DNA of 38,501 nucleotides, taken from assembly GCA_029856125.1 (NCBI GenBank), contig JAHQWJ010000056.1, forward strand, positions 1 to 38,501, in the 5' to 3' direction. Below the pieces are notes generated by a model. It made no database searches, had not been told where the DNA came from, and saw only the letters and a list, made by a program, of their open reading frames with translations. The stretch's first letter is position 1. The number at the start of each line of letters is the position of its first letter. This document shows, one piece after another, positions 9,322-37,089 of the stretch. The position numbers and the translations under genes were made by a program. Source of the DNA: Promethearchaeia archaeon. GTDB lineage: Archaea; Asgardarchaeota; Lokiarchaeia; Sigyniarchaeales; SOKP01.

Positions 9322-9573
9322 ACGACTCAATATCGATTCAGATTAACTGGTGTTCCACCAGACCAAGCTATTAAATTAATTGAAGTAGATCCAAACCAAT
9401 CTATAGCAGAAATTAAGAAAACAGTTCAACGAGAATATAAACTTAATCCGATTCTTGCTATTCAATTTATCTTTAAAGGAAAAGTACTTCCAGACCAGCT
9501 AAAGTTTGCCAAGATAGGGATCCACCCCAAGAAAGACGTGATAACAGTTATGGCGACCCAGGCTGGCGGATAA
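9322..9573 (+). CDS. Ubiquitin-like protein (83 aa, C-terminal GG), probable ACG start; missed by ORF track
   Basis: (M)TQYRFRLTGVPPDQAIKLIEVDPNQSIAEIKKTVQREYKLNPILAIQFIFKGKVLPDQLKFAKIGIHPKKDVITVMATQAGG*. Segments LIEVDPNQS/IAEIKK/QFIFKGKVL parallel ubiquitin TLEVEPSDT/IENVKA/RLIFAGKQL. In-frame TGA at 9313-9315 bounds the frame. Confidence 0.88.
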   Translation, partial: TTQYRFRLTGVPPDQAIKLIEVDPNQSIAEIKKTVQREYKLNPILAIQFIFKGKVLPDQLKFAKIGIHPKKDVITVMATQAGG

Positions 9574-9579
9574 TAAATA

Positions 9580-9600
9580 TTTTTTTAATTTTTTCTCTTT
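9580..9600 (+). terminator. Oligo-T archaeal terminator-like tract after the ubiquitin-like gene
   Basis: tttttttaattttttctcttt begins a few nt after the TAA stop. Confidence 0.5.
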
Positions 9601-9635
9601 CTATTATATTTTGCAAAATCTTACAAAAATAGTAT

Positions 9636-9842
9636 TTAAGTTTTAAATAAACTTAAGGCCTTCTTAACCATTTCTCTATAATTATATTTATCTCGTTCAA
9701 AATCATAACCAATAGATCCTAACACAATTTCAACATTAAACTCATCATAATCATAACCCAGTTCTTCGATGAAGGCAATGCCGTCATAAACACCATTCAA
9801 CCCATTCCCAAGATCGTGCGAATAAATACCACAAAAATCAGA
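9636..9842 (-). pseudogene. Probable gene remnant (68 codons, N-terminus missing)
   Basis: SDFCGIYSHDLGNGLNGVYDGIAFIEELGYDYDEFNVEIVLGSIGYDFERDKYNYREMVKKALSLFKT* is protein-like but cut upstream by an in-frame (TAA)n tract. Confidence 0.4.
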
Positions 9843-9863
9843 TTATTATTATTATTATTATTA
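9842..9863. repeat. (ATT)7 trinucleotide microsatellite
   Basis: attattattattattattatta. Confidence 0.85.
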
Positions 9864-9918
9864 CTCTTCCCAAGGTAATAGCGTTTAACATGCAAGATTT
9901 ACCTGATAAATTTGATCC

Positions 9919-9942
9919 ATTCTCGTGAATTATCACGAGAAT
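9919..9942. promoter_or_regulatory. Perfect inverted repeat ATTCTCGTGA-N4-TCACGAGAAT; candidate operator or hairpin
   Basis: 10-bp arms with a 4-nt spacer, 70-100 nt upstream of the ICMT-like gene; function inferred. Confidence 0.5.
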
Positions 9943-10035
9943 AATCGTAAAGTTCTACGTTATTCACGACTAGTATCTTTTAAAATGATACTTATATTTT
10001 TAAAGTAATTCTACTTGAGGATAGATAAGAGCAAC

Positions 10036-11175
10036 ATGAAAACTAAAAAGATATTAACCATCCTATCAGTTTTGATCATATTTTTCTGTATTATTTCTTC
10101 TTTTGATATTGTAAACTATATTGATTATATTAAAGATGATCTTATTATAGATGAATATTATGGATATCTCGTGTTTTTTGTTTTATTGTATTCGATAATT
10201 TTGTCTATATTGACCTTAATCCTTGTTCGTTTAGAAAAACTCCTTTTTTTCCAAATCTTGTTCTCAATAATCATATTTGGACTAAATTTAGGAATATTAA
10301 TAAATTTTACAATCATTATTCGAGACTTTTGGATAAATCTTTCTATAAGAGAAACTTTATTTTATTTGCCAAGTATAGTTTCAATTTTTTGTTCTATACC
10401 TATTCTATTATTGTCTTATTTTCAAATCAAATCGAAAAAACATATGAAGTTTTCAATAGAGGTTTTAAAAAGTAAAATTAAGCTTATTTATTTACGATTA
10501 GTTACATTAGTGGCTTACTTTCCCATTATACTGGGAATTTTATACACTATGACTGCAATGCCCGCTATTGCATACATTTCGTGGAATATTTTTCGTTTAT
10601 GGCCCGGGATCGATTTTATGGCGTCATGGTTCTTTGTCCACGGTTATTACTCTACGAATTTTGCTATCTATTCACTCATGGGGATCGAACTCGTTATTTT
10701 TATGTGCGGATTTGGTTTGTTTTTGCTTGGCTTAATTCACTTAGTAAAAGCAAAAAAAGAGAAAATCAATATAGTCCAAACAGGGCTTTATAAATACATT
10801 CGACACCCCCAAAATTTAGGTATAATTATATTTTCTTTTCCGTTTTGCTTATACGTGCCTTTTCTTGGTGATTCTGGAGTAAAAGTGGGAGATATTATTT
10901 CTTGGACGCTATTTTTTTTATTGATAATTATTTATTCTGATATCGAAGAAATTCAGATGGCGAAAAGGTATCCAGATGAGTATAAACTTTATAGGTCAAC
11001 TACAGGATTTTTTATTCCAAGAATCATCAAAACTAAAAAGGAAAGAGCTAACATGGAAATTAAACATTATCTATTTCGTTGGCTTTTCCTCATTGGAGGC
11101 TATATCCTCTTAATTTCCATTCTTACGTTTATATTTAGTAAATTTCCTCTGGTAATCATTGCTTATTATACTTAG
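10036..11175 (+). CDS. Isoprenylcysteine carboxyl methyltransferase / PEMT-like membrane methyltransferase with extra N-terminal TM helices
   Basis: IVQTGLYKYIRHPQNLG...IEE..MAKRYPDEYKLYRSTTGFFIP; many TM segments; ATG 10036 (alternative TTG 10015). Confidence 0.8.
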   Translation: MKTKKILTILSVLIIFFCIISSFDIVNYIDYIKDDLIIDEYYGYLVFFVLLYSIILSILTLILVRLEKLLFFQILFSIIIFGLNLGILINFTIIIRDFWINLSIRETLFYLPSIVSIFCSIPILLLSYFQIKSKKHMKFSIEVLKSKIKLIYLRLVTLVAYFPIILGILYTMTAMPAIAYISWNIFRLWPGIDFMASWFFVHGYYSTNFAIYSLMGIELVIFMCGFGLFLLGLIHLVKAKKEKINIVQTGLYKYIRHPQNLGIIIFSFPFCLYVPFLGDSGVKVGDIISWTLFFLLIIIYSDIEEIQMAKRYPDEYKLYRSTTGFFIPRIIKTKKERANMEIKHYLFRWLFLIGGYILLISILTFIFSKFPLVIIAYYT

Positions 11176-11346
11176 AACTTCGTATTTTATATTTTTAATT
11201 AAATTTGTTTTTATTTGACTAATTTATGATTAGATAATCCAAATTGATCGGTGGAATATATTTAATACTTTTAGGTTTTTAAAAGGAGATAAAACTCTAA
11301 AGTCCACCATTCCCTCTGAATCCTGGTTCTCTTGATTTTGGATTAA

Positions 11347-11484
11347 ATCCGTGAGAAAACCTACTATAGCGATATAGATCTAACTTACTTTTTCTACACG
11401 AATAGTTATGGATTAGTCTTTAGCGGAGTAGCGATTGTAATTTTCATCGCGTTCGCTCTCCAGATCAAGAAAAAGAGCTTCTAA
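11347..11484 (+). pseudogene. Remnant C-terminus of a membrane-anchored protein
   Basis: IREKTYYSDIDLTYFFYTNSYGLVFSGVAIVIFIAFALQIKKKSF*: a TM helix plus basic tail with no in-frame canonical start; upstream frame broken by stops. Confidence 0.4.
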
Positions 11485-11706
11485 TAAAGATTGATTTTGG
11501 TTTTTTCAATAGAAAAAGGAAAGGTATTAACCTTCTTTATAAAGAAAAAAAGAAGCAAAATTAAGTGTTTAAGAAAGAAAAAATAGAGTAAAAACTCCGA
11601 AACACACTCCCACCTCAATTTTATATATCAAATTAGAAAGGTAGCAAAAATATTAAATAGCTTCCAAGGAAATTATAAAATAACACAAAAGGGTGAAAAG
11701 AAAACT

Positions 11707-12006
11707 ATGCTAAAAAACAAAAACAATCAGATAAAATGGCTCGGTATAAGCCTAACTAAAAAAAAGTCAATTTATTTAACCATGCTCAGTAGTATTGGTT
11801 CTTCCTTCTTTGCAGGAGCAATTTTCTTTGCCGTTCCAGTTTTATTTTACGCCAGGACTGACATTTTTCCACACGATAAAATAACATATTCCTATACTTT
11901 GTTGTTGTCCATCTCTAACTTCATTGCCAGTTCTATATGTATTGGTATATTCGGTTATACGCTTAGTAAGGTTAAAATGTTCAGAAAATCTCTAAAGAAT
12001 CAATAA
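11707..12006 (+). CDS. Hypothetical 2-TM membrane protein
   Basis: 99 aa, two hydrophobic helices, GGGTGA SD-like motif upstream. Confidence 0.7.
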   Translation: MLKNKNNQIKWLGISLTKKKSIYLTMLSSIGSSFFAGAIFFAVPVLFYARTDIFPHDKITYSYTLLLSISNFIASSICIGIFGYTLSKVKMFRKSLKNQ

Positions 12007-12051
12007 AATATAGAACATTTACTAAGGAAAAGGATACCAAAAGAGAATTGA

Positions 12052-12771
12052 GTGAAAATGAAAAGAAAGTTAGTGTATATCCCCGTAATAATAATAATAA
12101 CCGGATTAATCTTAACATTCTCGATAATTATCAACAACTCTATAATACTAACGAGAATATATTATAAAATTGATTATAAGGGTAATGTTCAAAATTTTGA
12201 AAGTATTATTGACAAAAGTGAATTATTTGAATATCAAAAATACTGCTTGTGTCGAGATTACTTAGGGGATGTTTATAACCTAAGTGATAAAGTTTATTTG
12301 TACCACATTGATAGAGAATTGATAGAATATCTTAAGCTACAAATTGAAGAGGATAAAACGATATTTCATCTTTTTCCTTTTTATAGTCATGATTTTATTT
12401 ATTCATTGGAAGCAACTAACGAATCTCTGATATATCTGACCTACAATAATAATTCAATAATTAATGCGGAGTATGTAAACCATACGGAGATATTTACTGC
12501 TAGGTGGGGGCTTTATGATCTTTATGATAATAATTCGCTCTATTGGGAAGGAAATTGGTATCTTAATTTTACCTTTATCCCCTTTGCTCCCAACAGTTCA
12601 TCTACTATTGTATTAAATGATGTCATTTTAGTTAAAATGAATCTAAAATATCATCATGATTATATGTTTGGAGGATCCTTAGATTTAAGAATTGAGCCCT
12701 TTTTATGTTTTAACTCTAATCTTCAGATGATGTTTGTTTACTTTCCTTTTACATATAGTATTGTACAATAA
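12052..12771 (+). CDS. Hypothetical protein with N-terminal signal/TM anchor
   Basis: Basic N-terminus followed by a hydrophobic helix; Asn/Tyr-rich, with several NxS/T sequons. Confidence 0.7.
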   Translation: MKMKRKLVYIPVIIIITGLILTFSIIINNSIILTRIYYKIDYKGNVQNFESIIDKSELFEYQKYCLCRDYLGDVYNLSDKVYLYHIDRELIEYLKLQIEEDKTIFHLFPFYSHDFIYSLEATNESLIYLTYNNNSIINAEYVNHTEIFTARWGLYDLYDNNSLYWEGNWYLNFTFIPFAPNSSSTIVLNDVILVKMNLKYHHDYMFGGSLDLRIEPFLCFNSNLQMMFVYFPFTYSIVQ

Positions 12772-13019
12772 GAGAAATAAGACCAAAGTAGTGTGTGTGT
12801 TTATTTCCTTATTATTTTAAATTTCTTCAAACAAAAGAAAATTATCACCACAATATTTATTAGGAAACGAAAAAGAATTATAAGCAAAGTATCGCCGTGA
12901 GATTAAGATTATGCTCAAAGGGTGAAGAAGTAAAGTTGTTATCAAAATTATCACGGGACTGCTAATTCTTTCTGTATCAACCATATTATTGTATAAATTA
13001 TAATTTAAAGTGATTAAAA

Positions 13020-13592
13020 ATACCTGCTACACTGTTACACTATCCCGTTGCATGGGGGCTTTCAAAATTAGACAAACGGTTAAATCTGCCAGGTTTAATT
13101 GTGGGCTCATTTATACCTGATATCGAGGTTCCTATTTTAATGATTTTCTTTAATGGGGTGCTTCCAGATCATTTCATCTTGCACAGCTTGATTGGGGCAC
13201 TTACTATAGGTACTGTTATCTCAACTATGGTTACCGTTATGTTTTATCCATTTTTAACTTCGTTGTTCTTTCGAATCGATATAGATAAAACAAAGGAGAT
13301 ATGTAGATTAAGTCCTGCTCTAGTGTTATCCTGTATGCTTGGAAATATTTTTCATATCCTGTTAGATGTTCCTATGCATCCATTTAATCCTGTCCTGTGG
13401 CCTTTTGTAGACCCATATAGTATTGTCGGATTTTTAGTCATTGTCTTCTCCGTAGACGGAAGTTTTAGTTTAGGATTTCTAATAGCAAATATTCTGAATA
13501 ATGTGATAACGGGACTATTAATGCTTGCTATTATGATTAAAAGTAGGAAAAATTTATGGGAGCAAATTTTAATAGGAAGAATATACTCGTAA
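13020..13592 (+). CDS. DUF4184 / membrane-bound metal-dependent hydrolase-like protein, probable ATA start
   Basis: Frame extends 27 codons upstream of GTG 13101: (M)PATLLHYPVAWGLSKLDKRLNLPGLIVGSFIPD...HSL...HILLD...H. The family begins MPxTxxH. In-frame TGA at 13011-13013. Confidence 0.78.
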   Translation: MPATLLHYPVAWGLSKLDKRLNLPGLIVGSFIPDIEVPILMIFFNGVLPDHFILHSLIGALTIGTVISTMVTVMFYPFLTSLFFRIDIDKTKEICRLSPALVLSCMLGNIFHILLDVPMHPFNPVLWPFVDPYSIVGFLVIVFSVDGSFSLGFLIANILNNVITGLLMLAIMIKSRKNLWEQILIGRIYS

Positions 13593-13714
13593 TCTAAAAA
13601 TTCTTACCATTTTTTCTTAATTTCAAGTCATTTCTCATAATTTTAATGTTCATCAAGCAATCTTCAAAAGAAGTAATCAATTGAATAAAATAGCAATACT
13701 AGCTAATAAAAAGC

Positions 13715-13867
13715 TCAACAAACTGATAAAAATAAATCAATGTTTTTCTTAAAAAATAAAGAAAAATCCATACCGGAGTAGAATTTTCCATTGAATTTTA
13801 CTTCGATCGTAAAATCTTTACAAATTAAGTCAACTTCAATGCTAGGATAGGTATCTGAGCTCAACAT
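13715..13867 (-). pseudogene. Possible remnant of a PD-(D/E)xK nuclease-like gene
   Basis: MLSSDTYPSIEVDLICKDFTIEVKFNGKFYSG...: D...ExK spacing; short and flanked by broken frames. Confidence 0.3.
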
Positions 13868-13939
13868 TTTCCTAGCTTCGCAATCTAGTTTTCAAAATCT
13901 AGATTTAGAATCCAAATTCCTTTGGATTCACTACCTTTT

Positions 13940-14128
13940 TTAATCTCTACTTTCAGTTTTACAAATTTTTTCGTCGATTTCTTTTAAGGTATCTCGAAAC
14001 CCTTTAACTCCTTTAAGCTCTCTATTTCCTTTTCCTTTTTCTTTTTCTAAATCAATTTTTTTATTAAATTTTCTTTTCGCATATTCATATCCAAACAAAT
14101 ATGAATATATGTGTAATAATAATCCCAT
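13940..14128 (-). CDS. Small basic hypothetical protein or gene fragment
   Basis: 62 aa ORF with GGAGA upstream; no family recognised. Confidence 0.4.
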   Translation of the reverse strand: MGLLLHIYSYLFGYEYAKRKFNKKIDLEKEKGKGNRELKGVKGFRDTLKEIDEKICKTESRD

Positions 14129-14247
14129 ATAGTTTACATCTCCTGGAAGGAGTAATTTAATATTTACTAGATTGAATAGCAGATTTAAATGTTAGGAGAA
14201 AGGAGTTAAATAAATTTATTTCTGATTTTTACTATTTTCAAATAAAT

Positions 14248-14883
14248 TTAAGAGATCTTTCTTAACATACACCAAATTGGGATGTCAGTTTTGGGAATAA
14301 TTGCATATTCCAGTACTTCAAAACCATGTCTTTGATAAAATCCCACATTTTTCTCAGTATTTGTTTCTAAATAGATGGGTAGTTTCTCATTATCAATTAT
14401 TTTAAACATTTCCCTCAATAAAAGACTCCCATAACCCTTACCTTGCTCTTCTGGATCGACAGCAATAGATAGGAGATACCAATGATCAAATGGGGCAAGA
14501 CGTTTATGTACTGGAGTCATATAATTAAATACATCTATACTTCTCATCATTGAATTAAATTGGGATATTAATCCAGATTTGCGCATGGCCCGAAATCCGC
14601 CATGTCTTATCATACTCCAAGCAGTTTGATGCACTTCTTTCGGAGGCATCCATATTGCAATTCCTTCTAAATTCTCAGAAGTTGCCATTGCTTTACCTTT
14701 ATGTAATCCATATTTATAAATCATCTCAAATCCATATCGTAATTTTTCCTTTCGCTCATTTTCATCGGGAAAAGATAAAATAGTGACAGGATCATCTTGA
14801 AAAGCTCTTCCTGCTACTAGCCCCGCATCCTTTATTTGATCTTTTGAAAGATTTATTAGATTAGCTATAATAATCAATTCCAA
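14248..14883 (-). CDS. GNAT family N-acetyltransferase
   Basis: AFQDDP, HWYLLSIAVDPEEQGKGYGS, PIYLET, NVGFYQRHGF. Confidence 0.92.
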   Translation of the reverse strand: MELIIIANLINLSKDQIKDAGLVAGRAFQDDPVTILSFPDENERKEKLRYGFEMIYKYGLHKGKAMATSENLEGIAIWMPPKEVHQTAWSMIRHGGFRAMRKSGLISQFNSMMRSIDVFNYMTPVHKRLAPFDHWYLLSIAVDPEEQGKGYGSLLLREMFKIIDNEKLPIYLETNTEKNVGFYQRHGFEVLEYAIIPKTDIPIWCMLRKIS

Positions 14884-15059
14884 ATTCTGTTAAATAATAA
14901 ATTGTATATATATTATTTAAATTTATTGTTGATTCTACATAGTAGTAAATGATACTTTCAGTACTCCTATCACAATTTCCCTTGTGAATAACAAAAATTT
15001 ATTCATCTTTATCTAATAAAATTGATAATTTTCTTAAGTGTGACATATTTTCTTTCAAT

Positions 15060-16286
15060 ATGGTTGATAAAACTAAAATTGCTATTCAGAGAATTATTAG
15101 TGAAGATGTAAAAACAGCAGTATTTACCTCGCTAGATAACATTAATGCCCAAAAATTAATGCAAAAAGAAGGAATGATAATATTAATTAAACCTAACTTA
15201 TTAATGGGAAAACCACCGGAAAGAGGAGTAAATACTCATCCTGAGGTTGTGCGAGCAACTATTCAGTGGGTAAAACGATTCAACCCTGCAAAAATATATG
15301 TATGTGACTCTGCGGGAGGGGCAAAAGTAGGAATAACAGAAAAAGCAATTTTAGATAGTGGAATTGGGATAGTATGTGAAGAAGAAGGAGCTGAATGCTT
15401 ACCCTTTGAAAAAAGTGAAAGGAAGATTTACAAAATTGAAGATCCACTCGAATTAGAGGAAATTTCAAGTTCAAAACTGATTGAGGATGCTGATCTTATA
15501 ATCAATATTCCTAAAATAAAAACTCATTGGCAATGTACTTTAACTTGTTGCATAAAGAATATGTTTGGAACAGTTTTATTAGCAAATAAAGCAAAAACTC
15601 ACGCTCAGGCCGCCGTTCTTGATAGATTTTGTTCAGCATTAGCAGATATATATTCAGTGTCTAAACCACAATTGACAGTAATAGATGGGTATATTTGTAT
15701 GGAAGGTCAGGGACCTTCAAGCGGGGACGCAGTGAAATTAGACTTAATCTTGGCAGGATATGATCCTGTAGCATTAGATTCAGTAGTCTGCAAAATTATT
15801 GGATTTGACCCATCTGAAGTGTTATATTTAGCAAAAGCAGAACAAAAGGAATTGGGAAGTACAGATTTAGAGAAAGTCGAGATCATTGGTGAGACGATAG
15901 AGGAAGTATATCGTAAGTTTAAAAGACCTAAACTAAAACCAATTTCAATGCCTTTACCAAAGTGGTTAGCAGATTATCTTGGAAAGACAATTTTTAGAGC
16001 TACTGTAAAATTTAATAGAGAAAAATGTAAATTATGTTCTACTTGTTGGACTAATTGCCCAGTTAATGCGATTACTCCTCCAGAAATAATAAAAAAAGGA
16101 AATATTCCAATTTGGGATAAAAAGAAGTGTATAACTTGTTTTTGTTGCGTAGAATTGTGTCCTCACGAAGCAGTAAAATTTAAAATTAACTATGTTAAAA
16201 ATGCTCTATTTTCTTGGATGGGGTTAGCTTGCATCGCATTCTTAGCAATATTAACCTTGTTTTTCTCATGGATTCTAATGAATTAG
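15060..16286 (+). CDS. DUF362 domain protein with 2x[4Fe-4S] ferredoxin domain and C-terminal TM anchor
   Basis: LIKPNL, THPEVV, PKIKTH, KNMFG, MEGQGP, DPVALD; CxxCxxCxxxCP twice; hydrophobic tail. Confidence 0.9.
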   Translation: MVDKTKIAIQRIISEDVKTAVFTSLDNINAQKLMQKEGMIILIKPNLLMGKPPERGVNTHPEVVRATIQWVKRFNPAKIYVCDSAGGAKVGITEKAILDSGIGIVCEEEGAECLPFEKSERKIYKIEDPLELEEISSSKLIEDADLIINIPKIKTHWQCTLTCCIKNMFGTVLLANKAKTHAQAAVLDRFCSALADIYSVSKPQLTVIDGYICMEGQGPSSGDAVKLDLILAGYDPVALDSVVCKIIGFDPSEVLYLAKAEQKELGSTDLEKVEIIGETIEEVYRKFKRPKLKPISMPLPKWLADYLGKTIFRATVKFNREKCKLCSTCWTNCPVNAITPPEIIKKGNIPIWDKKKCITCFCCVELCPHEAVKFKINYVKNALFSWMGLACIAFLAILTLFFSWILMN

Positions 16287-16422
16287 ACTTATTTACTTAA
16301 AAGGAATTCTAAACCTTATATTTTTATATGGTTTAAAAGGCTATTTTATTTCTTGAAAATCTTATAAAGCTTTGAGATTAATATATCATATCATTTAAAA
16401 AAATGTTAAACAATGCAATAAA

Positions 16423-17814
16423 ATGAAGTTCACTATATTAAATGGGAGTCCTAAAGGCGCTGAGAGCGTCACCATGCAGTATATCTTATACATTAAGAAA
16501 AAACACCCGGAACACGAATATAATATAATAAACATAGCACAAGCAATTAAAAAGATCGAAAATGACGAAAAGAGATTCGAAGACATTATTCTTCAGGTAA
16601 AAAAATCAGATGGAGTAATATGGGGATTTCCTTTATATGTGATGTTGGTCTGTTCCCAATATAAACGGTTTATTGAATTGATTACCGAAAGAAATGTTGA
16701 AGCTGCCTTTGAAAATAAGTACACAATTGTCCTATCAACCTCGATTCATTTCTACGATCACACTGCCCAGAATTATATGCATAGTATTTGCGATGACTTA
16801 AAAATGAAGTATGTAGGAAATTATCCTGCAGACAGTTGGGATCTTCTTTACCCAAAGCGGCGAGCAAGATGGCTTTTATTCGTTGAGGAATTTATAAATC
16901 ACATCGAAAATAAATATCCTACTTCAAAACACTACGCTCCATTGAAAATAAGAGACTTTCAATATACTCCCGGAAAAAATATAGAAGATGCAGAGAAAAT
17001 TGATACACATAGCAAAAAAATTCTTGTTGTTAGTGATGAAACTAATGAAAACACAAATATAGGAAAAATGATAAAGAGGTTTACAGAGTCTTTTTCAAGC
17101 GAGATTGAAATCATAAACTTATACGACATCGATGTTAAAGGGGGGTGTATTTCGTGTTTACAATGTGGTTACGATCATAAATGCTCCTATATAGGAAAGG
17201 ATGGCTTTTTTGAGTTTTGGGAAGATGTAGTAATGACTTCGGACATCATCGTTTTTGCTGGTGTTATTAAAGATAGATATCTTTCATCCAGATGGAAGAT
17301 GGTTCTAGACCGAGCTTTTTATATGACGCATACACCGACTCTAATAGGAAAACAGATGGGTTATCTTATCTCTGGACCTGTAAATCAAATTCCAAATCTT
17401 TCTCAAATGTTTCAAGCTCACATAGAAATTCAAGACTCAAATTTTGTGGATATTATTACTGATGAATTTGGGACATCAGAAGACATAGATGCCTTACTCC
17501 ACGATTTTGCTAGGAAATTAGTTACATTTTCCAAAACAGATTACTTCAAGCCAATAACTTTTTTGGGAGAAGGAGGTAAAAAAATATTTCGAGACGATAT
17601 CTATGGGAGAAATCGATTTGTATTTTTAGCAGATCACGATTACTACGAGAAACATGGTTTTTATGACTCTTTCCCGCAAAATGACGAACGCGCAAAAAAA
17701 TTAAATGAAAAATTGATTCCTTTAATGAGAATGGATAAGCTTAGGAATAAAATCAATATGAAGCAAGAATTTCTTCGTCCATTCATGAAGGTACTTGAAG
17801 ATCCAGATAAATAA
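16423..17814 (+). CDS. Tandem flavodoxin-fold / iron-sulfur flavoprotein (NADPH-dependent FMN reductase family)
   Basis: ILNGSPKG N-terminus, FPLY; second domain has GCISCLQCG...C. Confidence 0.85.
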   Translation: MKFTILNGSPKGAESVTMQYILYIKKKHPEHEYNIINIAQAIKKIENDEKRFEDIILQVKKSDGVIWGFPLYVMLVCSQYKRFIELITERNVEAAFENKYTIVLSTSIHFYDHTAQNYMHSICDDLKMKYVGNYPADSWDLLYPKRRARWLLFVEEFINHIENKYPTSKHYAPLKIRDFQYTPGKNIEDAEKIDTHSKKILVVSDETNENTNIGKMIKRFTESFSSEIEIINLYDIDVKGGCISCLQCGYDHKCSYIGKDGFFEFWEDVVMTSDIIVFAGVIKDRYLSSRWKMVLDRAFYMTHTPTLIGKQMGYLISGPVNQIPNLSQMFQAHIEIQDSNFVDIITDEFGTSEDIDALLHDFARKLVTFSKTDYFKPITFLGEGGKKIFRDDIYGRNRFVFLADHDYYEKHGFYDSFPQNDERAKKLNEKLIPLMRMDKLRNKINMKQEFLRPFMKVLEDPDK

Positions 17815-17834
17815 AAATTAAACAGATAGAGGGT

Positions 17835-18041
17835 ATGAAAATGGCATGGGGCGGCTCGTTAAATAAAGATGGTTCTGATTACGTGAGAAATCTAAGAGAA
17901 GCTGATAAGGCAATAAAGTTTCTTGAAGGATTAAAGAGTGAATTAAATGAGGAAGAAAAACAAATCGTTTCAGACACTATCAATATTATTGTAAACAAAT
18001 ACACTAAAGAATCTAAAAATGATTCTCAAACCTTAAAGTGA
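17835..18041 (+). CDS. Small hypothetical protein
   Basis: 68 aa, helical and charged, GAGGG upstream, co-oriented with previous gene. Confidence 0.65.
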   Translation: MKMAWGGSLNKDGSDYVRNLREADKAIKFLEGLKSELNEEEKQIVSDTINIIVNKYTKESKNDSQTLK

Positions 18042-18602: not shown

Positions 18603-18646
18603 GGTTAGGTGATAAATTCTTTAATTGAACATTAATTTTTGCATTT

Positions 18647-19528: not shown

Positions 19529-19619
19529 TTATTTCAATAAATCTTACACCAATAATTGGAGTCCAGTCCATTTAAAGCGTTAAATTCATTAATTATTAAC
19601 TGCTAGGTTATATTAGAAT

Positions 19620-20225: not shown

Positions 20226-20226
20226 A

Positions 20227-25819: not shown

Positions 25820-25838
25820 TAGCTCAATTTTAATGTTT

Positions 25839-26579: not shown

Positions 26580-26623
26580 AAAAATACGTCATATCGTGTT
26601 GTAAAATGTTAATTCTCAGCTGT

Positions 26624-28501: not shown

Positions 28502-28562
28502 TTTTCTTTTTGGAATTTATTATTTTATAATTAAAGGATCTTATTATATAAAAAGTATCCAA

Positions 28563-30017
28563 TTACGATTTCTCCAAATGAAAGATTCCACTAACAACTG
28601 AGAAGATTCCCGCTATTATAAGTATGATAAAAAGTATTACTTCAATATCAGCGAAATTTAATATTCCCGTAAGGCCGAAAAGTACTAAAATTAATATAAG
28701 AATTCCTACACCAATAAGAATCCCACCAAAAAATTTTGACAATCTGTAAACCAATGAGAGGAACTCTAACCGATGAATTCTACTTTCTTTATCTCGAATT
28801 TCTTCCTCTTGAGTATCGAGCTCTAGTTTTAACTTTTGAAGAAGTTGTTTAGCATCATTTGTACTGTGATCTATTACTTCCTTAGATTTTACAAGTTTTT
28901 CATGCTCTATATTCATATATTCTAATTTTTCGCCGAGAGAAGCTATTCTTTCCTCTCTTTCAGCATACTCCAAATTAGATCCCTCAATATCTTTTTTGAT
29001 ATCTTCTAATCTTGTCTCATTAGCTTTTACTAGGTTTTCTTTACTTAAAATCTGTTCATCAACAGAGGTTATTACATCATTATGCTGTTGAATTTTAGAT
29101 TCAACATCAATTAATAACTCCTGTTTTTCAGAGAGTTGAATTTTGTATTTTGCGATTAGTTCCTCGTACGTTTCTCTTTGTTTTTCCATTTCAGGAAAAC
29201 CATCTTTATAATCCTCTATGTTTTTTTCTATAATTTTAATACGAGTTTCGTTTTTCTCAATTTGTTCGGATAAAAGCTTTTTCTCTTCTTCTTTAGCTTC
29301 AATTTCGTTGTTTGTGTGTTCTAATTCAAACTTATTTTTAACAATAGAAACTTTAAGAGTCTCGTTTTCGGCCGTTAGACTCTTGATTTTTTTCTCTAAA
29401 GCCTCCGCATTTTCTCCTTGTCTCTCAAGTAAAGACTCTTTCTCTTGAATTTCTTGATTCAGTTTGACAAGTTTAGAGCGTAATTCTTCTTGATTAGAAA
29501 CTTTCTCTTTAACACTATCTGTAAGTACAATTAAATCAACTTGTCTAGTTTCAAAAGTATTTACTAATTGCTCGTTATTCCTTAAGAGTTCCTTATACTC
29601 CACCTCTAGAGTATCCTTACTTTCCGTAACAATTTCAAAACGTTCCTCTAAATGTTGCATATCTTCATTTTTATGATTATATCTCTCTTCAAGTACTTTA
29701 ATAGTCTCTTCAATCGCAGTTAAATACTCTTCCTTATCATCAATTTTAGCTTGAATCGACTCTAACTTTACTTGTCTTTCCCGAATTTCTTCGCTTAAAT
29801 TCTCATGTTTCTTCTCCTTTTTTTCTGGTACCGCATCATTATTTTTTATCGTGTCAGAGATGTCTTCAATGCTATCTTCAAAAGTTCTAAGTTTCTTATC
29901 AATGAGATCTCTGGAATTTTTAGCTTTTGATAAGTACTCTTTGTCTATTTTTTCAATGTCTTTTTCAGACTTATCTTCCGCTTTTTCCGTTTCTTCTTCT
30001 TTGATCTCGTCAGTCAT
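28563..30017 (-). CDS. Long coiled-coil protein with C-terminal two-TM anchor
   Basis: About 420 aa of E/K/L/I-rich heptad-like sequence followed by two hydrophobic helices. Confidence 0.85.
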   Translation of the reverse strand: MTDEIKEEETEKAEDKSEKDIEKIDKEYLSKAKNSRDLIDKKLRTFEDSIEDISDTIKNNDAVPEKKEKKHENLSEEIRERQVKLESIQAKIDDKEEYLTAIEETIKVLEERYNHKNEDMQHLEERFEIVTESKDTLEVEYKELLRNNEQLVNTFETRQVDLIVLTDSVKEKVSNQEELRSKLVKLNQEIQEKESLLERQGENAEALEKKIKSLTAENETLKVSIVKNKFELEHTNNEIEAKEEEKKLLSEQIEKNETRIKIIEKNIEDYKDGFPEMEKQRETYEELIAKYKIQLSEKQELLIDVESKIQQHNDVITSVDEQILSKENLVKANETRLEDIKKDIEGSNLEYAEREERIASLGEKLEYMNIEHEKLVKSKEVIDHSTNDAKQLLQKLKLELDTQEEEIRDKESRIHRLEFLSLVYRLSKFFGGILIGVGILILILVLFGLTGILNFADIEVILFIILIIAGIFSVVSGIFHLEKS

Positions 30018-30383
30018 TAAATTTCATTTAATAAAAAGAGAATTGGGAATTTATAATTTAATATTTATTACAGTGCAAAAAATTGGGTTTTTTTTGTTCA
30101 ACTAAATGTTGAGGCAAATAAATATTCATTTCCTACAACTCACTTACTTCTTTATAAAATATACTCATTACAAATATTTAAACTTTTGAGTTTATTTTCT
30201 TATAGAGGTATCTCGTCTCTATTTCAAGCAATAAGTCTCTATAGAATTTAATATTTTGCTGCCCAATTAGAGTAATGTCTAGTAATTTACGTGTAAATTA
30301 TGGCTTTAGGGCGTTCAATGGATTTTTAATCTATAATGCTTGGTAATTCTATTACTACTATGGATTGAATAAAATGTTTGGAG

Positions 30384-31853
30384 TTATTTGTTTTTAGTTA
30401 GTTTTAACTTAATGTGAATGTTAAATGTTCTAGGACCAAAAGTTACTAATGCATAGAAATTTTCACGCCCGCCAATTTTGATCTTCCCATCAAGAACGGG
30501 TAAAATTAATTGCCGATTGCCATAAAGATTTGCCAAATCATGATCAAAGGAGTTGAAATCGGGGCGGTTCTCTAATGCTTTTACTGTATGTAGGGATTGA
30601 GAACTATCTCTTGAAGATAATTCTGCAAACTTGTAATGCATATCAAGGTAATTACCGAATTCGTGTTCGTTAATAATTAGACTAACAGTTGTATGATAGG
30701 ATCTAATTAAAATTTCTCCATCTTTAAAATTAGGGTTTTTTTCTAAATTAGATTTGAAAAGATCTTTTAATATATCTGTTATAAATAATAATTGAGTAAT
30801 AGCAAAACTTCGCATCTTTACATTGTATGAAATAATTACCTCGTTATCATTTTCAATCTGTTTAATTTTTTTTATATCTTTAACGGCTCCAAACAAATTC
30901 GATTCGAAAATAGGCTCAAATATCGCGGGACTTAACCTATTAGCGTTTCTGAAAGCCCAACTTCGCAATAGATTTCTTTGTGGAAAACTCAACATCTCTG
31001 TTGCTTCCAAGAACCCTCTTTTCATCTGGCAGATTTCTAAGGTGGGTGTCGCACTTCCTATTATTAATCTATGCCAAGCATTTTGAATAAGTCCTTTGAT
31101 TGAGAAAAGTTCCTTAAAACAATCAGTTGGCGTCATTCCTCCAAAATTTCGCGGATCAACCTCAATCCATAAGTTATTGTACAATTTTAAAAGTTGGTAA
31201 TATAGATTAAAATCTCCTGAAATATCCAATCCACTTAAAATGATAACAACATCCTGATTTCTTGATAAAAAAGACTTAAATTTATCACAAGTTGTATACT
31301 CAGCGCTATTTCCTGGTAGATTCATATTTCCTACATCAATCTTCACGAAGTATTCCTTTTTTTTACAATAGTTAAGTAACTCGCCTAAATTCTGGTTATC
31401 AACATCATTTATATCAATTTTGCAGAAGGAGGGATAAAGAGCAACTCCAACGACTGGAATTTGACTTTCTATTGATTCTAAACTTACGATAGCACTATTC
31501 TCAAGATTAAAGGATAAAATTCCTTTAAATATCTCTGGGTCACTTTTTACGACAGATAAAACGTCCTCATTGGCAATCCCGTAAGATCTATTTAAATCCA
31601 TTGCTTGAACAAATCCGTAATTAATATTTGAAGAAAACAACTCTACATTCTCATCTTCAATACTAATTTTTCTATTATAAAAGTAGTTTCTTCCGTCGTG
31701 ATTTTTTTGCTCTAAAAGATTTGTTAAAGCTTTTGATCCCTCGATCTCGTTAAAAATTGGCCATATTAAAGAATCAATTTGTCCATAGGTAAACGCATTT
31801 GCATATCTTGCCCCAAATATAGAACTAAAATCTGGCTGGTATAACCTTTCCAT
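30384..31853 (-). CDS. Degenerate amidohydrolase (TIM barrel) fused to YjbQ/UPF0047-like domain
   Basis: N-terminal NEDVL..V...P..FKG, GVALYP, NLWIE, RLIIGS, NANRL; C-terminal HTTVSLIINE...H...N...H...G..LILPVLDGKIKIG...GPR. Confidence 0.72.
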   Translation of the reverse strand: MERLYQPDFSSIFGARYANAFTYGQIDSLIWPIFNEIEGSKALTNLLEQKNHDGRNYFYNRKISIEDENVELFSSNINYGFVQAMDLNRSYGIANEDVLSVVKSDPEIFKGILSFNLENSAIVSLESIESQIPVVGVALYPSFCKIDINDVDNQNLGELLNYCKKKEYFVKIDVGNMNLPGNSAEYTTCDKFKSFLSRNQDVVIILSGLDISGDFNLYYQLLKLYNNLWIEVDPRNFGGMTPTDCFKELFSIKGLIQNAWHRLIIGSATPTLEICQMKRGFLEATEMLSFPQRNLLRSWAFRNANRLSPAIFEPIFESNLFGAVKDIKKIKQIENDNEVIISYNVKMRSFAITQLLFITDILKDLFKSNLEKNPNFKDGEILIRSYHTTVSLIINEHEFGNYLDMHYKFAELSSRDSSQSLHTVKALENRPDFNSFDHDLANLYGNRQLILPVLDGKIKIGGRENFYALVTFGPRTFNIHIKLKLTKNK

Positions 31854-31974
31854 GGAAAAGCACTTATTTTAACAAAAATTGTTATGTAAAAATTATTCTA
31901 ACTAAATTATTTTAATGTAAGAAATCAAATAATAATTATTAACTTAATTTCATCAAAGGTTTATCGCGTTTTAT

Positions 31975-33960
31975 ATGATTGATCTGACACTAGGAAGTTA
32001 TCCTATTATAATTTCTCCGAATTTAGGCAAACCGCTACTTCTAAACATGAGAGATTATAAACAAAGAGCTCAGTTTCCAATTAAGAATTTGTCGTTCGAA
32101 GCGCTTATCATTGCATCAAAATTCCATTCAACCCAAAACATTTTGGAGCATTTTCACCAAAATTTATTTATTCAGCCAATTTTAAAGGCAAGTGGCGATT
32201 TTGAAAAGAGAAGAGGAACCTTAATCGATTTACATTTAGTTCAAATCGAAAAAATCGAAAAATTAGATTTCAGAGATCAACCCGTTTTAGAAGAAGAGAA
32301 TTGTATTGTATGGGATATTAACAATTGTGTATTTCAATTTGACGATGTATTTGGAAAAAGAAAAGAGCTCTATAGAATTAAGGTTGAAATTCGTGATATC
32401 TTAAGCATTGAGAAATTGCTAAAAAATAATAATAGAGATTTTCTTTTATTTGATATCGTACATGATATCCCTAATTTCACTGAGAATAAAACAAATTACC
32501 ATAGCATCGCTATTTTTGATAAAGATTGGAATGATTTCAGCTTCATTCACGCTACTGACTTTCATATTGCTCGAAGAAATGACTTCATCTTACATTATCT
32601 AAAAGATAAAGCAAGGGCTAAGATCGAGCGATGTGGAACTAATGAAAAGAAAAGAAAAAAAATAGATACATTTGTTCTCACAAGAGATTTCGAATTTAAA
32701 GAAGAGTTTCAAGAAGAACGATACGAAGATTTAAGAAAAGCAAAATTTAACTTTAATTCCAACCTGAGAAAGTTAATTAGTTTTGCAAACGATAAGTCCA
32801 CTCAGAAGAACTTAGATTTTATGCTTATGACGGGGGATTTAATAGACTATCTAAACATCGCTAGAGGAAACTATCAATATAAGAATAATTACCTTGTCTT
32901 TTTAGATATTTTGCTCGGAAGAAATAAAGGATTGGACAATCCTCCTTATCTAGGTTCTGATGATGAGTTTGTTAATTCCCAAGAAATTATGGTTCCTATT
33001 TTTACATCAATAGGTAACCATGACTACAGGTCAAATCACTATGGAATGCGTTTTGGTCAGATTCATAAAATTTTTGGGATGACACATTCAGATACGAAGG
33101 GATATTACGATACTAAATTCTTTAACTACTTCACGGCTCTTAGATCTAAAGACAAGTATTTGAAAGACTATTTTAGGTATATCAATCCTAACCTCAACTT
33201 TAATCTTAAGATAGGAGACCATTATAATTTTATATTCCTCGATACAGGTCAAGACTCAATTGCAGATATGCATGATTTATTAAAAGGTGGACCAAGTACA
33301 AAAGGAATTAAAGAATATCAAGTAGATTTATTACGTGCTTTTATTCAAATAGCCCATAATGAAAAGGTTATCGTAGTTATGCATACTCCTCCAGTTTCCC
33401 CAAACCTTAGTCGATACAAGAGGAGAAAATATAAAAAAAAATTGAATATCAAGAATAGACCATTACAATGGTCAGATTTCTATGAGGGTAATTTAACGCG
33501 TTATAATGGAACTGGACGATTGGATACGATATTAAATCTCAAATATCAAACAATTATGTATAACTGGTCAACAGTTTTAAAAATCTTTACTGGTTCAGAT
33601 AAGATCATTAGAAGAAAAGTAGATCTTGTAGTGTGTGGGCATACTCACACTTTAAAAGAGTATAGGTTAAAAGAAGCTAAAAAAACAGATAGAATAAATT
33701 TTGGTTTTTGGTTTTTTCCAATTTACATTGAGGTACCATGTGAAATTTACACCTCACGATATCGGGATAAATTTAAAGAATTCAAAAATCCACTCGAATT
33801 AAGGACATGGTTTGATGTTAATAAACCCTTTATATTTCAAACGCAAGCGGTTGGTCCCCTTTCTGCGAAATTTAAATTTAAGCCCCCAGGATTTAGATAT
33901 TATACTATTAAGAATGATCAAGTAATCAGTGCTAAAGTATTTTCTTTACATTTAAAATGA
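31975..33960 (+). CDS. Large calcineurin-like metallophosphoesterase
   Basis: TDFH, GDLID, GNHD, MH and GHTH motifs, all in order. Confidence 0.88.
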   Translation: MIDLTLGSYPIIISPNLGKPLLLNMRDYKQRAQFPIKNLSFEALIIASKFHSTQNILEHFHQNLFIQPILKASGDFEKRRGTLIDLHLVQIEKIEKLDFRDQPVLEEENCIVWDINNCVFQFDDVFGKRKELYRIKVEIRDILSIEKLLKNNNRDFLLFDIVHDIPNFTENKTNYHSIAIFDKDWNDFSFIHATDFHIARRNDFILHYLKDKARAKIERCGTNEKKRKKIDTFVLTRDFEFKEEFQEERYEDLRKAKFNFNSNLRKLISFANDKSTQKNLDFMLMTGDLIDYLNIARGNYQYKNNYLVFLDILLGRNKGLDNPPYLGSDDEFVNSQEIMVPIFTSIGNHDYRSNHYGMRFGQIHKIFGMTHSDTKGYYDTKFFNYFTALRSKDKYLKDYFRYINPNLNFNLKIGDHYNFIFLDTGQDSIADMHDLLKGGPSTKGIKEYQVDLLRAFIQIAHNEKVIVVMHTPPVSPNLSRYKRRKYKKKLNIKNRPLQWSDFYEGNLTRYNGTGRLDTILNLKYQTIMYNWSTVLKIFTGSDKIIRRKVDLVVCGHTHTLKEYRLKEAKKTDRINFGFWFFPIYIEVPCEIYTSRYRDKFKEFKNPLELRTWFDVNKPFIFQTQAVGPLSAKFKFKPPGFRYYTIKNDQVISAKVFSLHLK

Positions 33961-33962
33961 TT

Positions 33963-34931
33963 TTAAGCGGTTTCCATTAACTTCAATACTTCTTCGTATG
34001 TACTATCAACCATAGGCCCTAAAAACTGAACTTTCAGAGCTCCAGCGGCATTTGCAAACATTCCAATTCTTTTTAAATCCCACCCTGCTAAATAACCAAC
34101 AATAAAAGCCCCATCAAACGAATCACCCGCTCCAGTTGGGTCTATTTCCTCAACCTCAAATCCTGGAACCCTTATTTCATCTACTAATCCAGAAGAAAAT
34201 ATAGAACACCCTTCTTTTCCTTGTTTCAAAACGACTAATTTTAAACCTTTCTTTAGTAATTTCCTACAGGCTTTGACCTCTCCCTTGACTCCTGCTAACA
34301 TTTCTGCTTCTTCTCCACTTGGGAATAATATAGTAGTCTTATCTAATACTGGTTTAGATATTTCTATAATCGTTTTTATGTCTAGCATTTCTGGGCGTAA
34401 ATTTGGATCAAATGAAATAATGGTTTGAGGGTTTAGAGATTTTGCAATTTCAATTGCTTTATAACATGATTCCCGGGAATTTTCACTTATTGAAAGAGAA
34501 CTACCCATAATGTGAAGAACTTTTACGTTCGAAAAGTATTCTTCGTCAATATCGTCTGGAGAAGTTTGTCCTGCCGCTCCAGCAGCAAAAATAAATTTTC
34601 GAGAGCCATCTGAATTATATTGATTAAAAGCTATTCCTGTAGTTCTTGAATTATCTATCCGTATTTTAGAAATATCAACTCCATCAGATTGTAATTTTTT
34701 AAGAACTCCTTCTCCAAATTCATCGTTTCCAACAACACCAATAAAACCTGTGGTTAAATTAAACGATTTAGACATTCGGGTAGCCGAGTCTATAAATATA
34801 GCAGGAGCTCCACTTGGAAATGGACCCTTATAATAAGAACCAATTCTTCCGTGTGGTACGTCAACTTCCGTACGCATTATCTCGACTAATAGTTCTCCTA
34901 AACTAATTATATTAGGCTTCATTTTCATCAA
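33963..34931 (-). CDS. PfkB-family sugar kinase
   Basis: GELLVE, SGAPAI, GVVGNDEFG, FDPNLR, DPTGAGDSF. Confidence 0.94.
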   Translation of the reverse strand: MMKMKPNIISLGELLVEIMRTEVDVPHGRIGSYYKGPFPSGAPAIFIDSATRMSKSFNLTTGFIGVVGNDEFGEGVLKKLQSDGVDISKIRIDNSRTTGIAFNQYNSDGSRKFIFAAGAAGQTSPDDIDEEYFSNVKVLHIMGSSLSISENSRESCYKAIEIAKSLNPQTIISFDPNLRPEMLDIKTIIEISKPVLDKTTILFPSGEEAEMLAGVKGEVKACRKLLKKGLKLVVLKQGKEGCSIFSSGLVDEIRVPGFEVEEIDPTGAGDSFDGAFIVGYLAGWDLKRIGMFANAAGALKVQFLGPMVDSTYEEVLKLMETA

Positions 34932-35005
34932 TTTCTATTTATACCATTAAAATAAGTTAATTTAACAGAGTAAGTAATAGAATTTAATATTTTATAAGCT
35001 TAAAC

Positions 35006-35524
35006 TTATTTTTTACCTTGATCTATTTTAGTAGAATCAGATTCTTTGCGGAGTAAGATCAAAGATATAATTCCTATTAAAGGTCCTACAGCTAAAAGTG
35101 TAAAACCGAATACCCAACTAACTAAATTTACAAAATTTGGTAATAGCTGTATAGATATAAGGGTAATTCCAAAACCCACAGAGGTTTGGACGGTTAAAGA
35201 AGTGCCAATATAATCTTGATCACTTAACTCAGTTATCATAACGGAATATTGAGGCGAGTCTGGCACAACAGTAATTCCCCAGATTACAGCAATTATTAAA
35301 GCTACTATTGTATTATTAAAAAAAAATCCAATAACAACCGAACTAGATCCGCTTAAGATTAGCATTATAATGCTAAATTTTGTCCTTCCTATTCGATCGG
35401 CGAGCAATCCTCCAAAAGTGTTGCCTAAAGCACCACTAATGAATACTATAAACGTTCCAATTGAAAAAAATAATGTAGCATCTCCGCTTGGATATGATAA
35501 AATATAGGATTCTTTAAGAAAAAT
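35006..35524 (-). pseudogene. N-terminally truncated MFS transporter (C-terminal ~172 aa only)
   Basis: Frame opens after TAA 35525-35527 at IFLKES...GGLLADRIGR (MFS motif A of second half), DSPQYS..TELS...GTSLT.Q...GF; the first ~6-7 helices are absent. Confidence 0.75.
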
Positions 35525-35626
35525 TTAATTTTTCACTTTTCTTAATAAAATTTTCACCTATACTTTTTTTATATCTTAGACTCATATTATAATAAAGATT
35601 TTTATATAGAGAATTAGGTGTGAAAA

Positions 35627-35866
35627 ATTAACAATAGGAAAAAAGTTGAGTTAATTGCTGAAATTTTAGATAGATATGACGATAGTGAATGCTTTTATTG
35701 CGGTGGGACTTTAAATGGTGATTTAGAAAGCGACGATTTCGATGACGGATATTCCGACGATTGGTGTTCTGACTGTTCCAAAGGAATTGACCCGAATGAT
35801 GACTGGGAGGAAGCCTGTTTAAATGCGATAGAGAAAATTATTCACGATAAACCTTTCAAAGCATAA
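35627..35866 (+). CDS. Small acidic Cys-rich (CxxC...CxxC) protein, probable ATT start; missed by ORF track
   Basis: (M)NNRKKVELIAEILDRYDDSECFYCGGTLNGDLESDDFDDGYSDDWCSDCSKGIDPNDDWEEACLNAIEKIIHDKPFKA*; TTTATATA box at 35601-35608 and AGGTGTGA directly upstream; in-frame TGA at 35621. Confidence 0.75.
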   Translation: MNNRKKVELIAEILDRYDDSECFYCGGTLNGDLESDDFDDGYSDDWCSDCSKGIDPNDDWEEACLNAIEKIIHDKPFKA

Positions 35867-35870
35867 ATTA

Positions 35871-36299
35871 TTATACTCTATTTTTTATATCGGTCGCACA
35901 TGCACAGTGGCTAGAACTTAAGATTACCTCACCACAAGGACATTTTTTTGGATGCTCATATTTCTTACAAATTTTATTTATGGTTTCACAGGAGAAAAGC
36001 AGATTTAAATTTTCACTTTCCCGATGAGCAAGTTCTGGTTTTAAGCCTAATTCGTTATGTAGAAAAATTTCCAAGAGTCTTGCGTGTCTATTTAACTCTA
36101 TTGCTAAATCTCTACCCTTGGAAGTTAATTCGACTTCACGGTAAGCTTCATATTTTACAAAACCTTTTGCTTTTAATCTCGTAATGCAACTCCCCAATGT
36201 AGAGTGAGGGATACTGAGCTCCTTAGCAAGTTTTCCAACTTTTATAGGAACATTATTTCGAAATAAAAACTTAATGACAATATAATCTAAATTTTGCAT
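35871..36299 (-). CDS. DtxR/MntR-family metal-dependent transcriptional regulator
   Basis: LAKELSI...L..KGFVKYEAYREVELTSKG.....L.RHARLLE.FL...LG....AHRES, HPKKCPCG; start placed at ATG 36299. Confidence 0.88.
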   Translation of the reverse strand: MQNLDYIVIKFLFRNNVPIKVGKLAKELSIPHSTLGSCITRLKAKGFVKYEAYREVELTSKGRDLAIELNRHARLLEIFLHNELGLKPELAHRESENLNLLFSCETINKICKKYEHPKKCPCGEVILSSSHCACATDIKNRV

Positions 36300-36327
36300 A
36301 GATCGATTTATTACTCGTTTTGATAAA

Positions 36328-37089
36328 TTAATGATTATGACCCATGACACTCATGGTTAAGACCATTACCGTTACTCCTAATAGGATTAAAATTAATTGT
36401 TGTACTGAGTGCTTTAATCCCCACTTTTGATGTAACTCCGGTGTTAAATCTGATAATGCAATGTATAAAAAACTTGCTGCTGAAATTGCTAGGGCGTAAG
36501 GCACGATAAATGATATTTCTCCTAAAATGAAAAAGCTAACTATTGCTGCTGGAATTGTTGTTATACTTGATAGTGTGTTAAGAATAAAAGCTTTCTTTTT
36601 TGAATAACCACCATGTAAAAGGATTCCAAAATCTCCTGTCTCCTGTGGAACTTCGTGTGCAATTATCGCTAAACTTACGGATATTCCAACCGTAAAGTTT
36701 GTAAGAAAGCTCGCAGCAATGACGATTCCATCTATAAAATTATGAAAAGCATCACCAATCAAGACAATAGGACCAGCTGCTGCGTGAACATCGCAGTCCT
36801 CGTCAGCGCAATTTCGCCATATAATTATTTTTTCCAGGAAAAAGAAAAAAAGAATGCCACCTAAAACAAACGGCATTACAGTATGGGGTTCCCCCCCAGC
36901 ACTCTCTATTGCTTCAGGTATTAATCCATATAACGCTGCTGTGAGCAAAGTTCCAGTCGCAAACGAGATCAACATTGAAATGAGCGATTTTTGAGCTCTT
37001 TCCGTTAATAGTACAAAAAGAGCGGCTGCTGAAATAGCTCCAATACTACCTAAAATACTAAATAAAATTATCCATCCAAGAATGATAAT
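36328..37089 (-). CDS. ZIP-family zinc/metal transporter, probable ATT/ATC start
   Basis: FATGTLL, LIPEA, GDAFHNFIDG, AHEVPQE.GD, SFLYIALSDL.PELH. The frame extends 38 codons above ATG 36975 with TM1 (IIILGWIILFSILGSIGAISAAALFVLL). Confidence 0.9.
   Translation of the reverse strand: MIILGWIILFSILGSIGAISAAALFVLLTERAQKSLISMLISFATGTLLTAALYGLIPEAIESAGGEPHTVMPFVLGGILFFFFLEKIIIWRNCADEDCDVHAAAGPIVLIGDAFHNFIDGIVIAASFLTNFTVGISVSLAIIAHEVPQETGDFGILLHGGYSKKKAFILNTLSSITTIPAAIVSFFILGEISFIVPYALAISAASFLYIALSDLTPELHQKWGLKHSVQQLILILLGVTVMVLTMSVMGHNH

Follow-up and report, generated by a model that had tools for sequence, protein, structure and literature searches.

In bacteria, initiation at AUU or AUA is known for a handful of genes, in which the codon lies past a strong or extended Shine-Dalgarno (SD) sequence and is conserved among relatives (Escherichia coli infC and pcnB, both AUU; Staphylococcus aureus infC, AUA, cvfC1, AUU, ccpN, AUA, and citZ, AUA). 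High-resolution mapping of starts in S. aureus revealed four non-canonical starts genome-wide, all with an extended SD and with about 10% of the output of AUG (PMC13009471). Synthesis of an initiation fidelity factor can be self-limiting, by use of an AUU start for bacterial IF3 (the product of infC) and of a poor start context for eukaryotic eIF1 (PMC4705826). The archaeal factor aIF1, an orthologue of eIF1, rejects non-AUG complexes and was found to discriminate against AUU in vitro in Sulfolobus solfataricus (PMC4705826; PMC6237735). In eukaryotes, near-cognate codons (CUG, GUG, ACG, AUU and AUA) are read by the methionyl initiator tRNA and policed by eIF1 (PMC4705826; PMC3105428). For prokaryotes, surveys regard ATG, GTG and TTG as the start-codon set (PMC5622118). 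Here we analyze a stretch of DNA from an Asgard archaeon of the Lokiarchaeia (contig JAHQWJ010000056.1 of assembly GCA_029856125.1) on which four genes, encoding a ubiquitin-like protein (Ubl), a DUF4184-like membrane protein, a small CxxC protein and a ZIP metal transporter, appear to start at ACG, ATA or ATT.

The candidate starts resemble the bacterial examples in that AUU and AUA are found past strong SD sites and are conserved among relatives, and they draw on the same one-base variants of AUG as near-cognate initiation in eukaryotes. They differ from the bacterial examples in extent, with a ribosomal protein gene among those affected, in codon range, which also includes ACG, CTG and GTT, and in the machinery, which is archaeal (aIF1, aIF1A and aIF2) and not that of IF3. 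By contrast to eukaryotes, where scanning and Kozak context mostly yield low-efficiency extensions and upstream open reading frames, the start here would be set by the SD, and the main protein would have no other. Our reading, to which we assign a probability of roughly 80%, is that the four genes of the window, and about 5-10% of the genes in the organism and its genus compared to a handful in bacteria, are translated from near-cognate starts that are directed by SD sites under relaxed stringency.

Four genes of the window lack a canonical start codon

The window is the entire 38.5-kb contig (38,501 nt), which belongs to a bin of 3.69 Mb in 153 contigs (G000, the genome under study) with a G+C content of 32.7% and an archaeal 16S rRNA. 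The original prediction held that four genes of this window have a short upstream in-frame stop and no ATG, GTG or TTG (hereafter NTG) at the N-terminus, and this was confirmed at all four. For comparison of orthologues, 30-40 relatives were searched and the DNA around each match was read. By this approach, conservation of the non-ATG codons could be followed in related genomes, and the same codon was found in some congeners and ATG in others.

The Ubl gene (9322..9573, plus strand) encodes a protein of 83 aa with a C-terminal GG (Pfam ubiquitin, E=4.9e-10). Its leader reads in frame as ATG-TGA (9310-9315), AAA, GAC and ACG 9322, and the only NTG codons of the frame are codons 73 and 77. The SD-like GATGTGA (9309..9315, plus strand) is complementary to the 3' end of the 16S rRNA, with a spacing of 7 nt from the last G of its GTG to the ACG. 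At the aligned codon, ATG is present in 7 congeners, ACG in 4 genomes (G000 counted) and ATT in 1. The SD of the other ACG-bearing congeners is GGATGTGA or AGGATGTGA; across congeners, (A)GGATGTGA precedes ACG, and most ATG codons follow a bare GTGA. Codon differences between the ACG-bearing genomes amount to 25-32 synonymous and 0 nonsynonymous changes, a pattern in the aligned sequences that indicates purifying selection on the Ubl protein. The CxxC protein and aIF1 were likewise conserved in this test for purifying selection. Across the genus, identity of the Ubl protein is 96-100% (91% in one of 16 congeners matched), with some 30-47 synonymous codon changes, a sign of very strong constraint.

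The gene for the DUF4184/YdjM-like membrane protein (13020..13592, plus strand) is predicted to start at ATA 13020, and its match to Pfam DUF4184 begins at profile position 2. Its leader consists of TGA (13011-13013), TTA and AAA, and the TGA lies within an SD-like AAGTGA (13008..13013, plus strand) that is spaced 7 nt from the ATA. This codon aligns with ATG in G007, with ATT in G014 and with ATA in G013, G029 and a paralogue on contig C126 of the same genome, and the corresponding SD place of the orthologues is occupied by AGGTG or AAGTG.

The CxxC protein gene (35627..35866, plus strand) is predicted to start at ATT 35627 and has no NTG in its whole frame of 79 codons. The leader reads in frame as TAG-GTG-TGA, AAA and ATT, with the SD AGGTG (35616..35620, plus strand) spaced 6 nt from the ATT. 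At the aligned position, 7 congeners have ATG and 6 have ATT. An additional in-frame ATG is found four codons upstream in G013 and G014, at a place where G000 has TAG.

The ZIP transporter gene (36328..37083, minus strand; Pfam Zip, E=1.6e-35) has a leader of TAA (37101-37099), TTT, GGT and GTA followed by three consecutive Ile codons, ATT, ATC and ATT. These codons are spaced 2, 5 and 8 nt from the SD core GGTG (37092..37095, minus strand). The start had originally been placed at the first or second Ile codon (37089 or 37086), and in this respect the prediction requires correction: the start is assigned to the third, ATT 37083-37081, because this is the codon that aligns with ATG of orthologues (G006 and G021) and because, in G016, an in-frame TAG precedes the aligned start by two codons. 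ATT is found at the same position in G007, G003, G010, G016, G017, G005 and G018; G013 and G014 have GTT there. Orthologues carry GGTGA, GGTGT or GAGGT at the corresponding SD place.

If translation of these genes began instead at a downstream NTG, the proteins would be shorter and the conserved upstream part would be untranslated. Canonical codons are available for this in the ZIP frame (ATG 36975, codon 37) and in the DUF4184-like frame (GTG, codon 28), each the first NTG of its frame, and some conserved 5' untranslated regions (UTRs) do imitate short N-terminal extensions. Starts at these codons would, however, deprive the ZIP protein of its first transmembrane helix and the DUF4184-like protein of the conserved N-terminus of its family, and the CxxC and Ubl frames provide no NTG at all or none before codon 73 of 83, respectively, and a downstream start is thus impossible for these two. 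Furthermore, conservation at the protein level extends over the upstream parts, whose first codon coincides exactly with the ATG of congeners, and codon usage is coding-like in the first stretch of frames that have no NTG for at least 30 codons after the stop. Downstream initiation is thus regarded as highly improbable.

Elsewhere in the window, a half-length frame of 166 aa (35006-35506, minus strand) matches positions 35-181 of the 347 of the Pfam MFS_1 profile, and coding-like sequence extends beyond its first NTG (35407) by about 27 codons in the upstream direction. This frame could be a fragment or could have a further non-canonical start.

Near-cognate codons are enriched in frame after Shine-Dalgarno sites

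The 16S rRNA of G000 ends in ...GGATCACCTCCT, and therefore GGAGGTGATCC is the complementary mRNA sequence. GTGA or GGTG is found 6-8 nt before the start codon at all four window sites (7, 7, 6 and 8 nt, in the order described above), and confident ATG genes display G enrichment at -14 to -7 with a peak of GGTG/GTGA 6-10 nt upstream. The original prediction was that a GTGA-type motif or the transcript 5' end positions the start. Judged by its complementarity to the 16S 3' end, the GTGA motif is a Shine-Dalgarno sequence, and the first of these proposals holds. Leaderless initiation implies a transcript 5' end at the start codon and no SD; positioning by the transcript 5' end is without support, as SD sites are present at all four genes.

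For a genome-wide view, stop-to-stop frames of at least 120 codons were passed through a codon-usage filter, which left 2577 genes in G000, and the codons after a strong SD match (5-mer or longer) were scored where the first NTG lay at least 10 codons further on. In-frame ATT, ATA or ATC was found at 42%, 40% and 30% of sites at spacings of 6, 7 and 8 nt, compared to about 10% at spacings of 10-30 nt. When pooled, the counts were 47/125 (37.6%) at 6-8 nt versus 110/1036 (10.6%) at 11-30 nt (p=3e-13). By contrast, the same codons out of frame occurred at 9.2% versus 9.8%, with no peak. Among sites where GGTG headed a frame of this kind (n=65), 46 (71%) had one of ATT, ATA, ATC, ACG, CTG or GTT in frame at 5-10 nt, a share that fell to 15% and 14% when the remaining two frames were scored (p=1e-14). 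The spacings of GGTG-led sites (n=49) tracked the SD optimum, with 8 sites at 5 nt, 7 at 6 nt, 21 at 7 nt and 12 at 8 nt. Replication in a sample of 1.56 Mb from the congener G017 gave in-frame ATT, ATA or ATC at 41.7% versus 12.8% (p=3e-7), and a near-cognate codon was in frame at 64% of its SD 5-mer sites versus 12-16% off frame. The view that start-codon selection is relaxed across the lineage is strengthened by this enrichment in both genomes and by codons that are conserved or exchanged with ATG among congeners.

Two small-GTPase-like genes (C63:10164 and C82:19779, both plus strand), in which the G1 motif GxxxxGKT/S is near the N-terminus, are also without a canonical start and have ATA or ATT shortly past GATGTGA or GAGGTTGA.

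Several of the SD sites contain or adjoin an NTG that is followed directly by a stop, and this arrangement raises the question of start-stop reinitiation, in which ribosomes would start at the NTG, stop, and restart a few bases downstream with a relaxed codon requirement. Such pairs are ATG-TGA in the Ubl leader, GTG-TGA in the CxxC leader, GTG-TAA in the ZIP leader and TTG-TGA in the leader of aIF1 (see below), and GTG-stop precedes 11/49 (22%) of non-NTG starts compared to 7/82 (9%) of ATG starts (p=0.035). The excess may be meaningless, and no such pair is present at 78% of the GGTG-led non-NTG starts. The DUF4184-like gene has no in-frame NTG-stop, and the NTG of the pairs overlaps the SD and has no SD of its own. 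In G010, G013 and G014 the Ubl SD motif is kept while its frame relative to the open reading frame is not, as the frame shifts between congeners. We therefore regard reinitiation as unlikely, at odds of about one in twenty, and favor direct SD-directed initiation at the near-cognate codon. The base that follows the SD core GGTG before non-NTG starts is T as often as A (e.g., GGTGTAA at 37095-37089 and GGTGTGA at 35617-35623). A quadruplet or +1 shift from the GTG of GTGA was also considered and rejected: GTG plus one base is in frame at three window sites, but 27/49 GGTG sites do not fit.

Estimated proportion of genes with near-cognate starts

The frequency of such starts was estimated by homology from reciprocal-best pairs of G000 and G017 in the filtered gene set (n=785), where at least 15 conserved residues were required upstream of the first NTG and an in-frame stop within 15 codons before the homology. 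By these criteria, 29/785 pairs (3.7%) fell in the class of non-NTG starts. The codon with the best SD in this class was ATT in 10, ATA in 3, CTG in 2, ACG in 1 and GTT in 1 of 23 cases, and single-base near-cognates accounted for 16/23 compared to a background of about 20%. A threshold of 6 residues was tried and abandoned, as the class of 6-12 residues was inflated by conserved 5' UTRs and SD sites read in frame. NTG makes up about 4% of coding codons, so that by arithmetic the chance that a real gene has no NTG in its first 15 codons is about 54%; corrected for this, the homology count of 3.7% becomes roughly 7%.

A start model was run without a codon prior, and its rough numbers, with some starts mis-assigned to the second codon (e.g., ACA after ATT), were ATG 74%, TTG 8.6%, GTG 4.1%, ATT 3.1%, ATA 1.6%, ATC 0.8% and ACG 0.5%. 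ATG thus dominates here as in ordinary prokaryotic usage, with TTG at about 9% and GTG at about 4%, while a further 5-10% of other codons would fall outside the surveyed set. Based on these sequence comparisons, we estimate that near-cognate starts are used in about 5-10% of genes in G000 and the genus, with the homology count of 3.7% as the minimum. This estimate agrees with the 4 cases among about 40 genes in the window.

Predicted ATT starts in the genes for eS19 and aIF1

The gene for ribosomal protein eS19 (C144:2473-2889) starts at an ATT that lies 8 nt past GGTG, and no NTG follows for 101 codons. Among congeners, eS19 has ATT with GGTG in 5 and ATG without GGTG in 15, and an ATT or ATA start of eS19 also occurs in two genera of another family, g2, to which G026 belongs, and g9. 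The pairing of weak codons with stronger SD sites, seen in both eS19 and Ubl, would fit compensation; as the genomes are related, this covariation is suggestive only.

The aIF1 gene (C84:118620-118958) is the sole SUI1/aIF1 match in G000. Its frame, which starts at ATT, has no ATG, GTG or TTG before the C-terminal end. In all 17 of the 17 genus members retrieved, both the ATT and the leader AAGGTTGTGA were invariant; the three codons past the TGA of the leader vary, and a zinc-knuckle N-terminus follows the ATT. ATA is found at this start in two genomes of genus g5 and apparently in genus g10, and other genera of the order use TTG, ATG or GTG; G024 is among the genomes with ATA.

Genes with such starts were expected from the original prediction to be hidden or truncated in annotations, and this was borne out in part. 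JGI and ENA calls of aIF1 are truncations of 74-90 aa, and one ENA call reads TTG-TGA as M-W in the manner of a TGA=Trp code, but the NCBI records of related metagenome-assembled genomes already have aIF1 at its full 113 aa from the ATT, with a product that begins M-K-D-D-D.

These two genes bear on the question of whether the non-ATG codons are sequencing or assembly errors, or recent start losses in dying genes. G000 is a metagenome bin with an estimated contamination of 6%, and single-base departures from ATG are what errors would give. Errors would not be expected to recur, however, and the non-ATG codon repeats across independent assemblies (Ubl ACG in 4, CxxC ATT in 6, eS19 ATT in 5 and aIF1 ATT in 17). 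The absence of nonsynonymous changes against 25-32 synonymous ones in Ubl does not fit a dying gene, and eS19 and aIF1 are essential. Errors and gene decay are thus exceedingly improbable, and the same recurrence and purifying selection uphold the original argument that independent start-loss mutations are an unlikely cause.

The codons could also be canonical or cognate in a hidden manner, by RNA editing to AUG, by recoding of TGA or by extra initiator tRNAs. ACG-to-AUG editing occurs in plant organelles. The ENA reading of the aIF1 leader as M-W would suit a recoded TGA, and the incomplete tRNA set leaves room for extra initiators. Editing would, however, need to be of at least three kinds (U, A or C to G/U), and the one initiator-type tRNA that was found (A1:U72, GGG/CCC anticodon stem) has the anticodon CAU. 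Read-through of TGA or an alternative code was examined as a candidate and rejected: TGA is a normal stop that ends 412/2803 long frames, the stretch from the previous stop to the TGA of the DUF4184-like gene contains no NTG, and in aIF1 the SD is invariant but the codons that separate TGA from ATT vary freely. Taken together, these results render a hidden cognate codon very unlikely, and reading of genuine near-cognate codons is preferred.

Discussion

In the mechanism that we propose, pairing of the GGTG/GTGA core with the 16S 3' end, 6-8 nt upstream of the start, would place the 30S subunit, and the ordinary initiator tRNA (anticodon CAU) would read the mismatched codon. ATT would be used most commonly and ATA and ATC next, with some use of ACG, CTG and GTT. 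Such codons are stable, in that they are kept through speciation and exchanged with ATG at the same position in congeners, with a tendency toward longer SD sites. Through its conserved ATT start, aIF1 would be under a feedback by which proofreading stays weak enough for these codons to be used.

Several points weigh against this proposal or limit its reach. Initiation by the ribosome with methionine at the near-cognate codons is a prediction from nucleotide sequence. No excess of in-frame near-cognates after SD sites was detected in 0.8 Mb (positions 1,000,001-1,800,000) of G026, a closed 4.36-Mb genome of another family (2/15 and 6/16 sites; a small sample). For the SD-anchored method, this result amounts to a weak negative control; within the limits of the small sample, it also hints that the trait is stronger in the genus studied here. 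When all orthologue pairs were tallied for the codon aligned to ATG of the partner, ATT, ATA and ATC made up 5.8% versus 11.6% in the control, with no excess; the lack of enrichment is attributed to N-termini that shift, with only 53% of pairs being ATG-ATG, and the tally is informative only once no NTG is available (18 cases). No further initiator-type tRNA was found in a tRNA set that is incomplete (17-24 tRNAs by aragorn with and without introns, 28 by Rfam). The start model assigns part of its weight to second codons (e.g., ACA) and is thus of limited resolution. Finally, the figure of 5-10% is an estimate only, because the class of 6-12 conserved residues is contaminated by conserved 5' UTRs. 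With regard to individual genes of G026, eS19 starts at ATT and aIF1 at TTG despite the null result of the SD test.

The start of aIF1 is reminiscent of infC and of the poor context of eIF1, as a fidelity-factor gene again has a weak start (ATT in 17/17). It differs in that the feedback is proposed here by analogy, in that other genera of the order use TTG, ATG or GTG, and in that the weak codon in the genus studied is not special to aIF1. A feedback loop through this ATT would offer an appealing account of a permissive set-point in the genus. More tentatively, and at odds that we place clearly below even, aIF1, itself made from a conserved AUU and an invariant leader, may reach an abundance that keeps AUU, AUA and ACG usable, and hundreds of genes would then be free to tune their expression by start codon and SD strength.

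To our knowledge, no microbe has near-cognate starts at anywhere near this frequency. In the literature on Asgard archaea, Lokiarchaeota and Prometheoarchaeum, no account was found of widespread non-canonical starts or of an AUU-initiated aIF1. Gene callers that are restricted to ATG, GTG and TTG would overlook several per cent of the genes of these Asgard genomes or call them in truncated form, including those for eukaryote-type ubiquitin, small GTPases, eS19 and aIF1, and inventories of 'eukaryotic signature proteins' and estimates of completeness would be distorted. The lineage would provide a natural system for the study of how near-cognates are tolerated at scale by an initiation apparatus that is archaeal and eukaryote-like, and how the level of start-codon stringency is determined could be tested by comparison of genera that differ in the start codon of aIF1. 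These findings also suggest that feedback of eIF1/aIF1 by way of a weak start may be older than eukaryotes or may be convergent.

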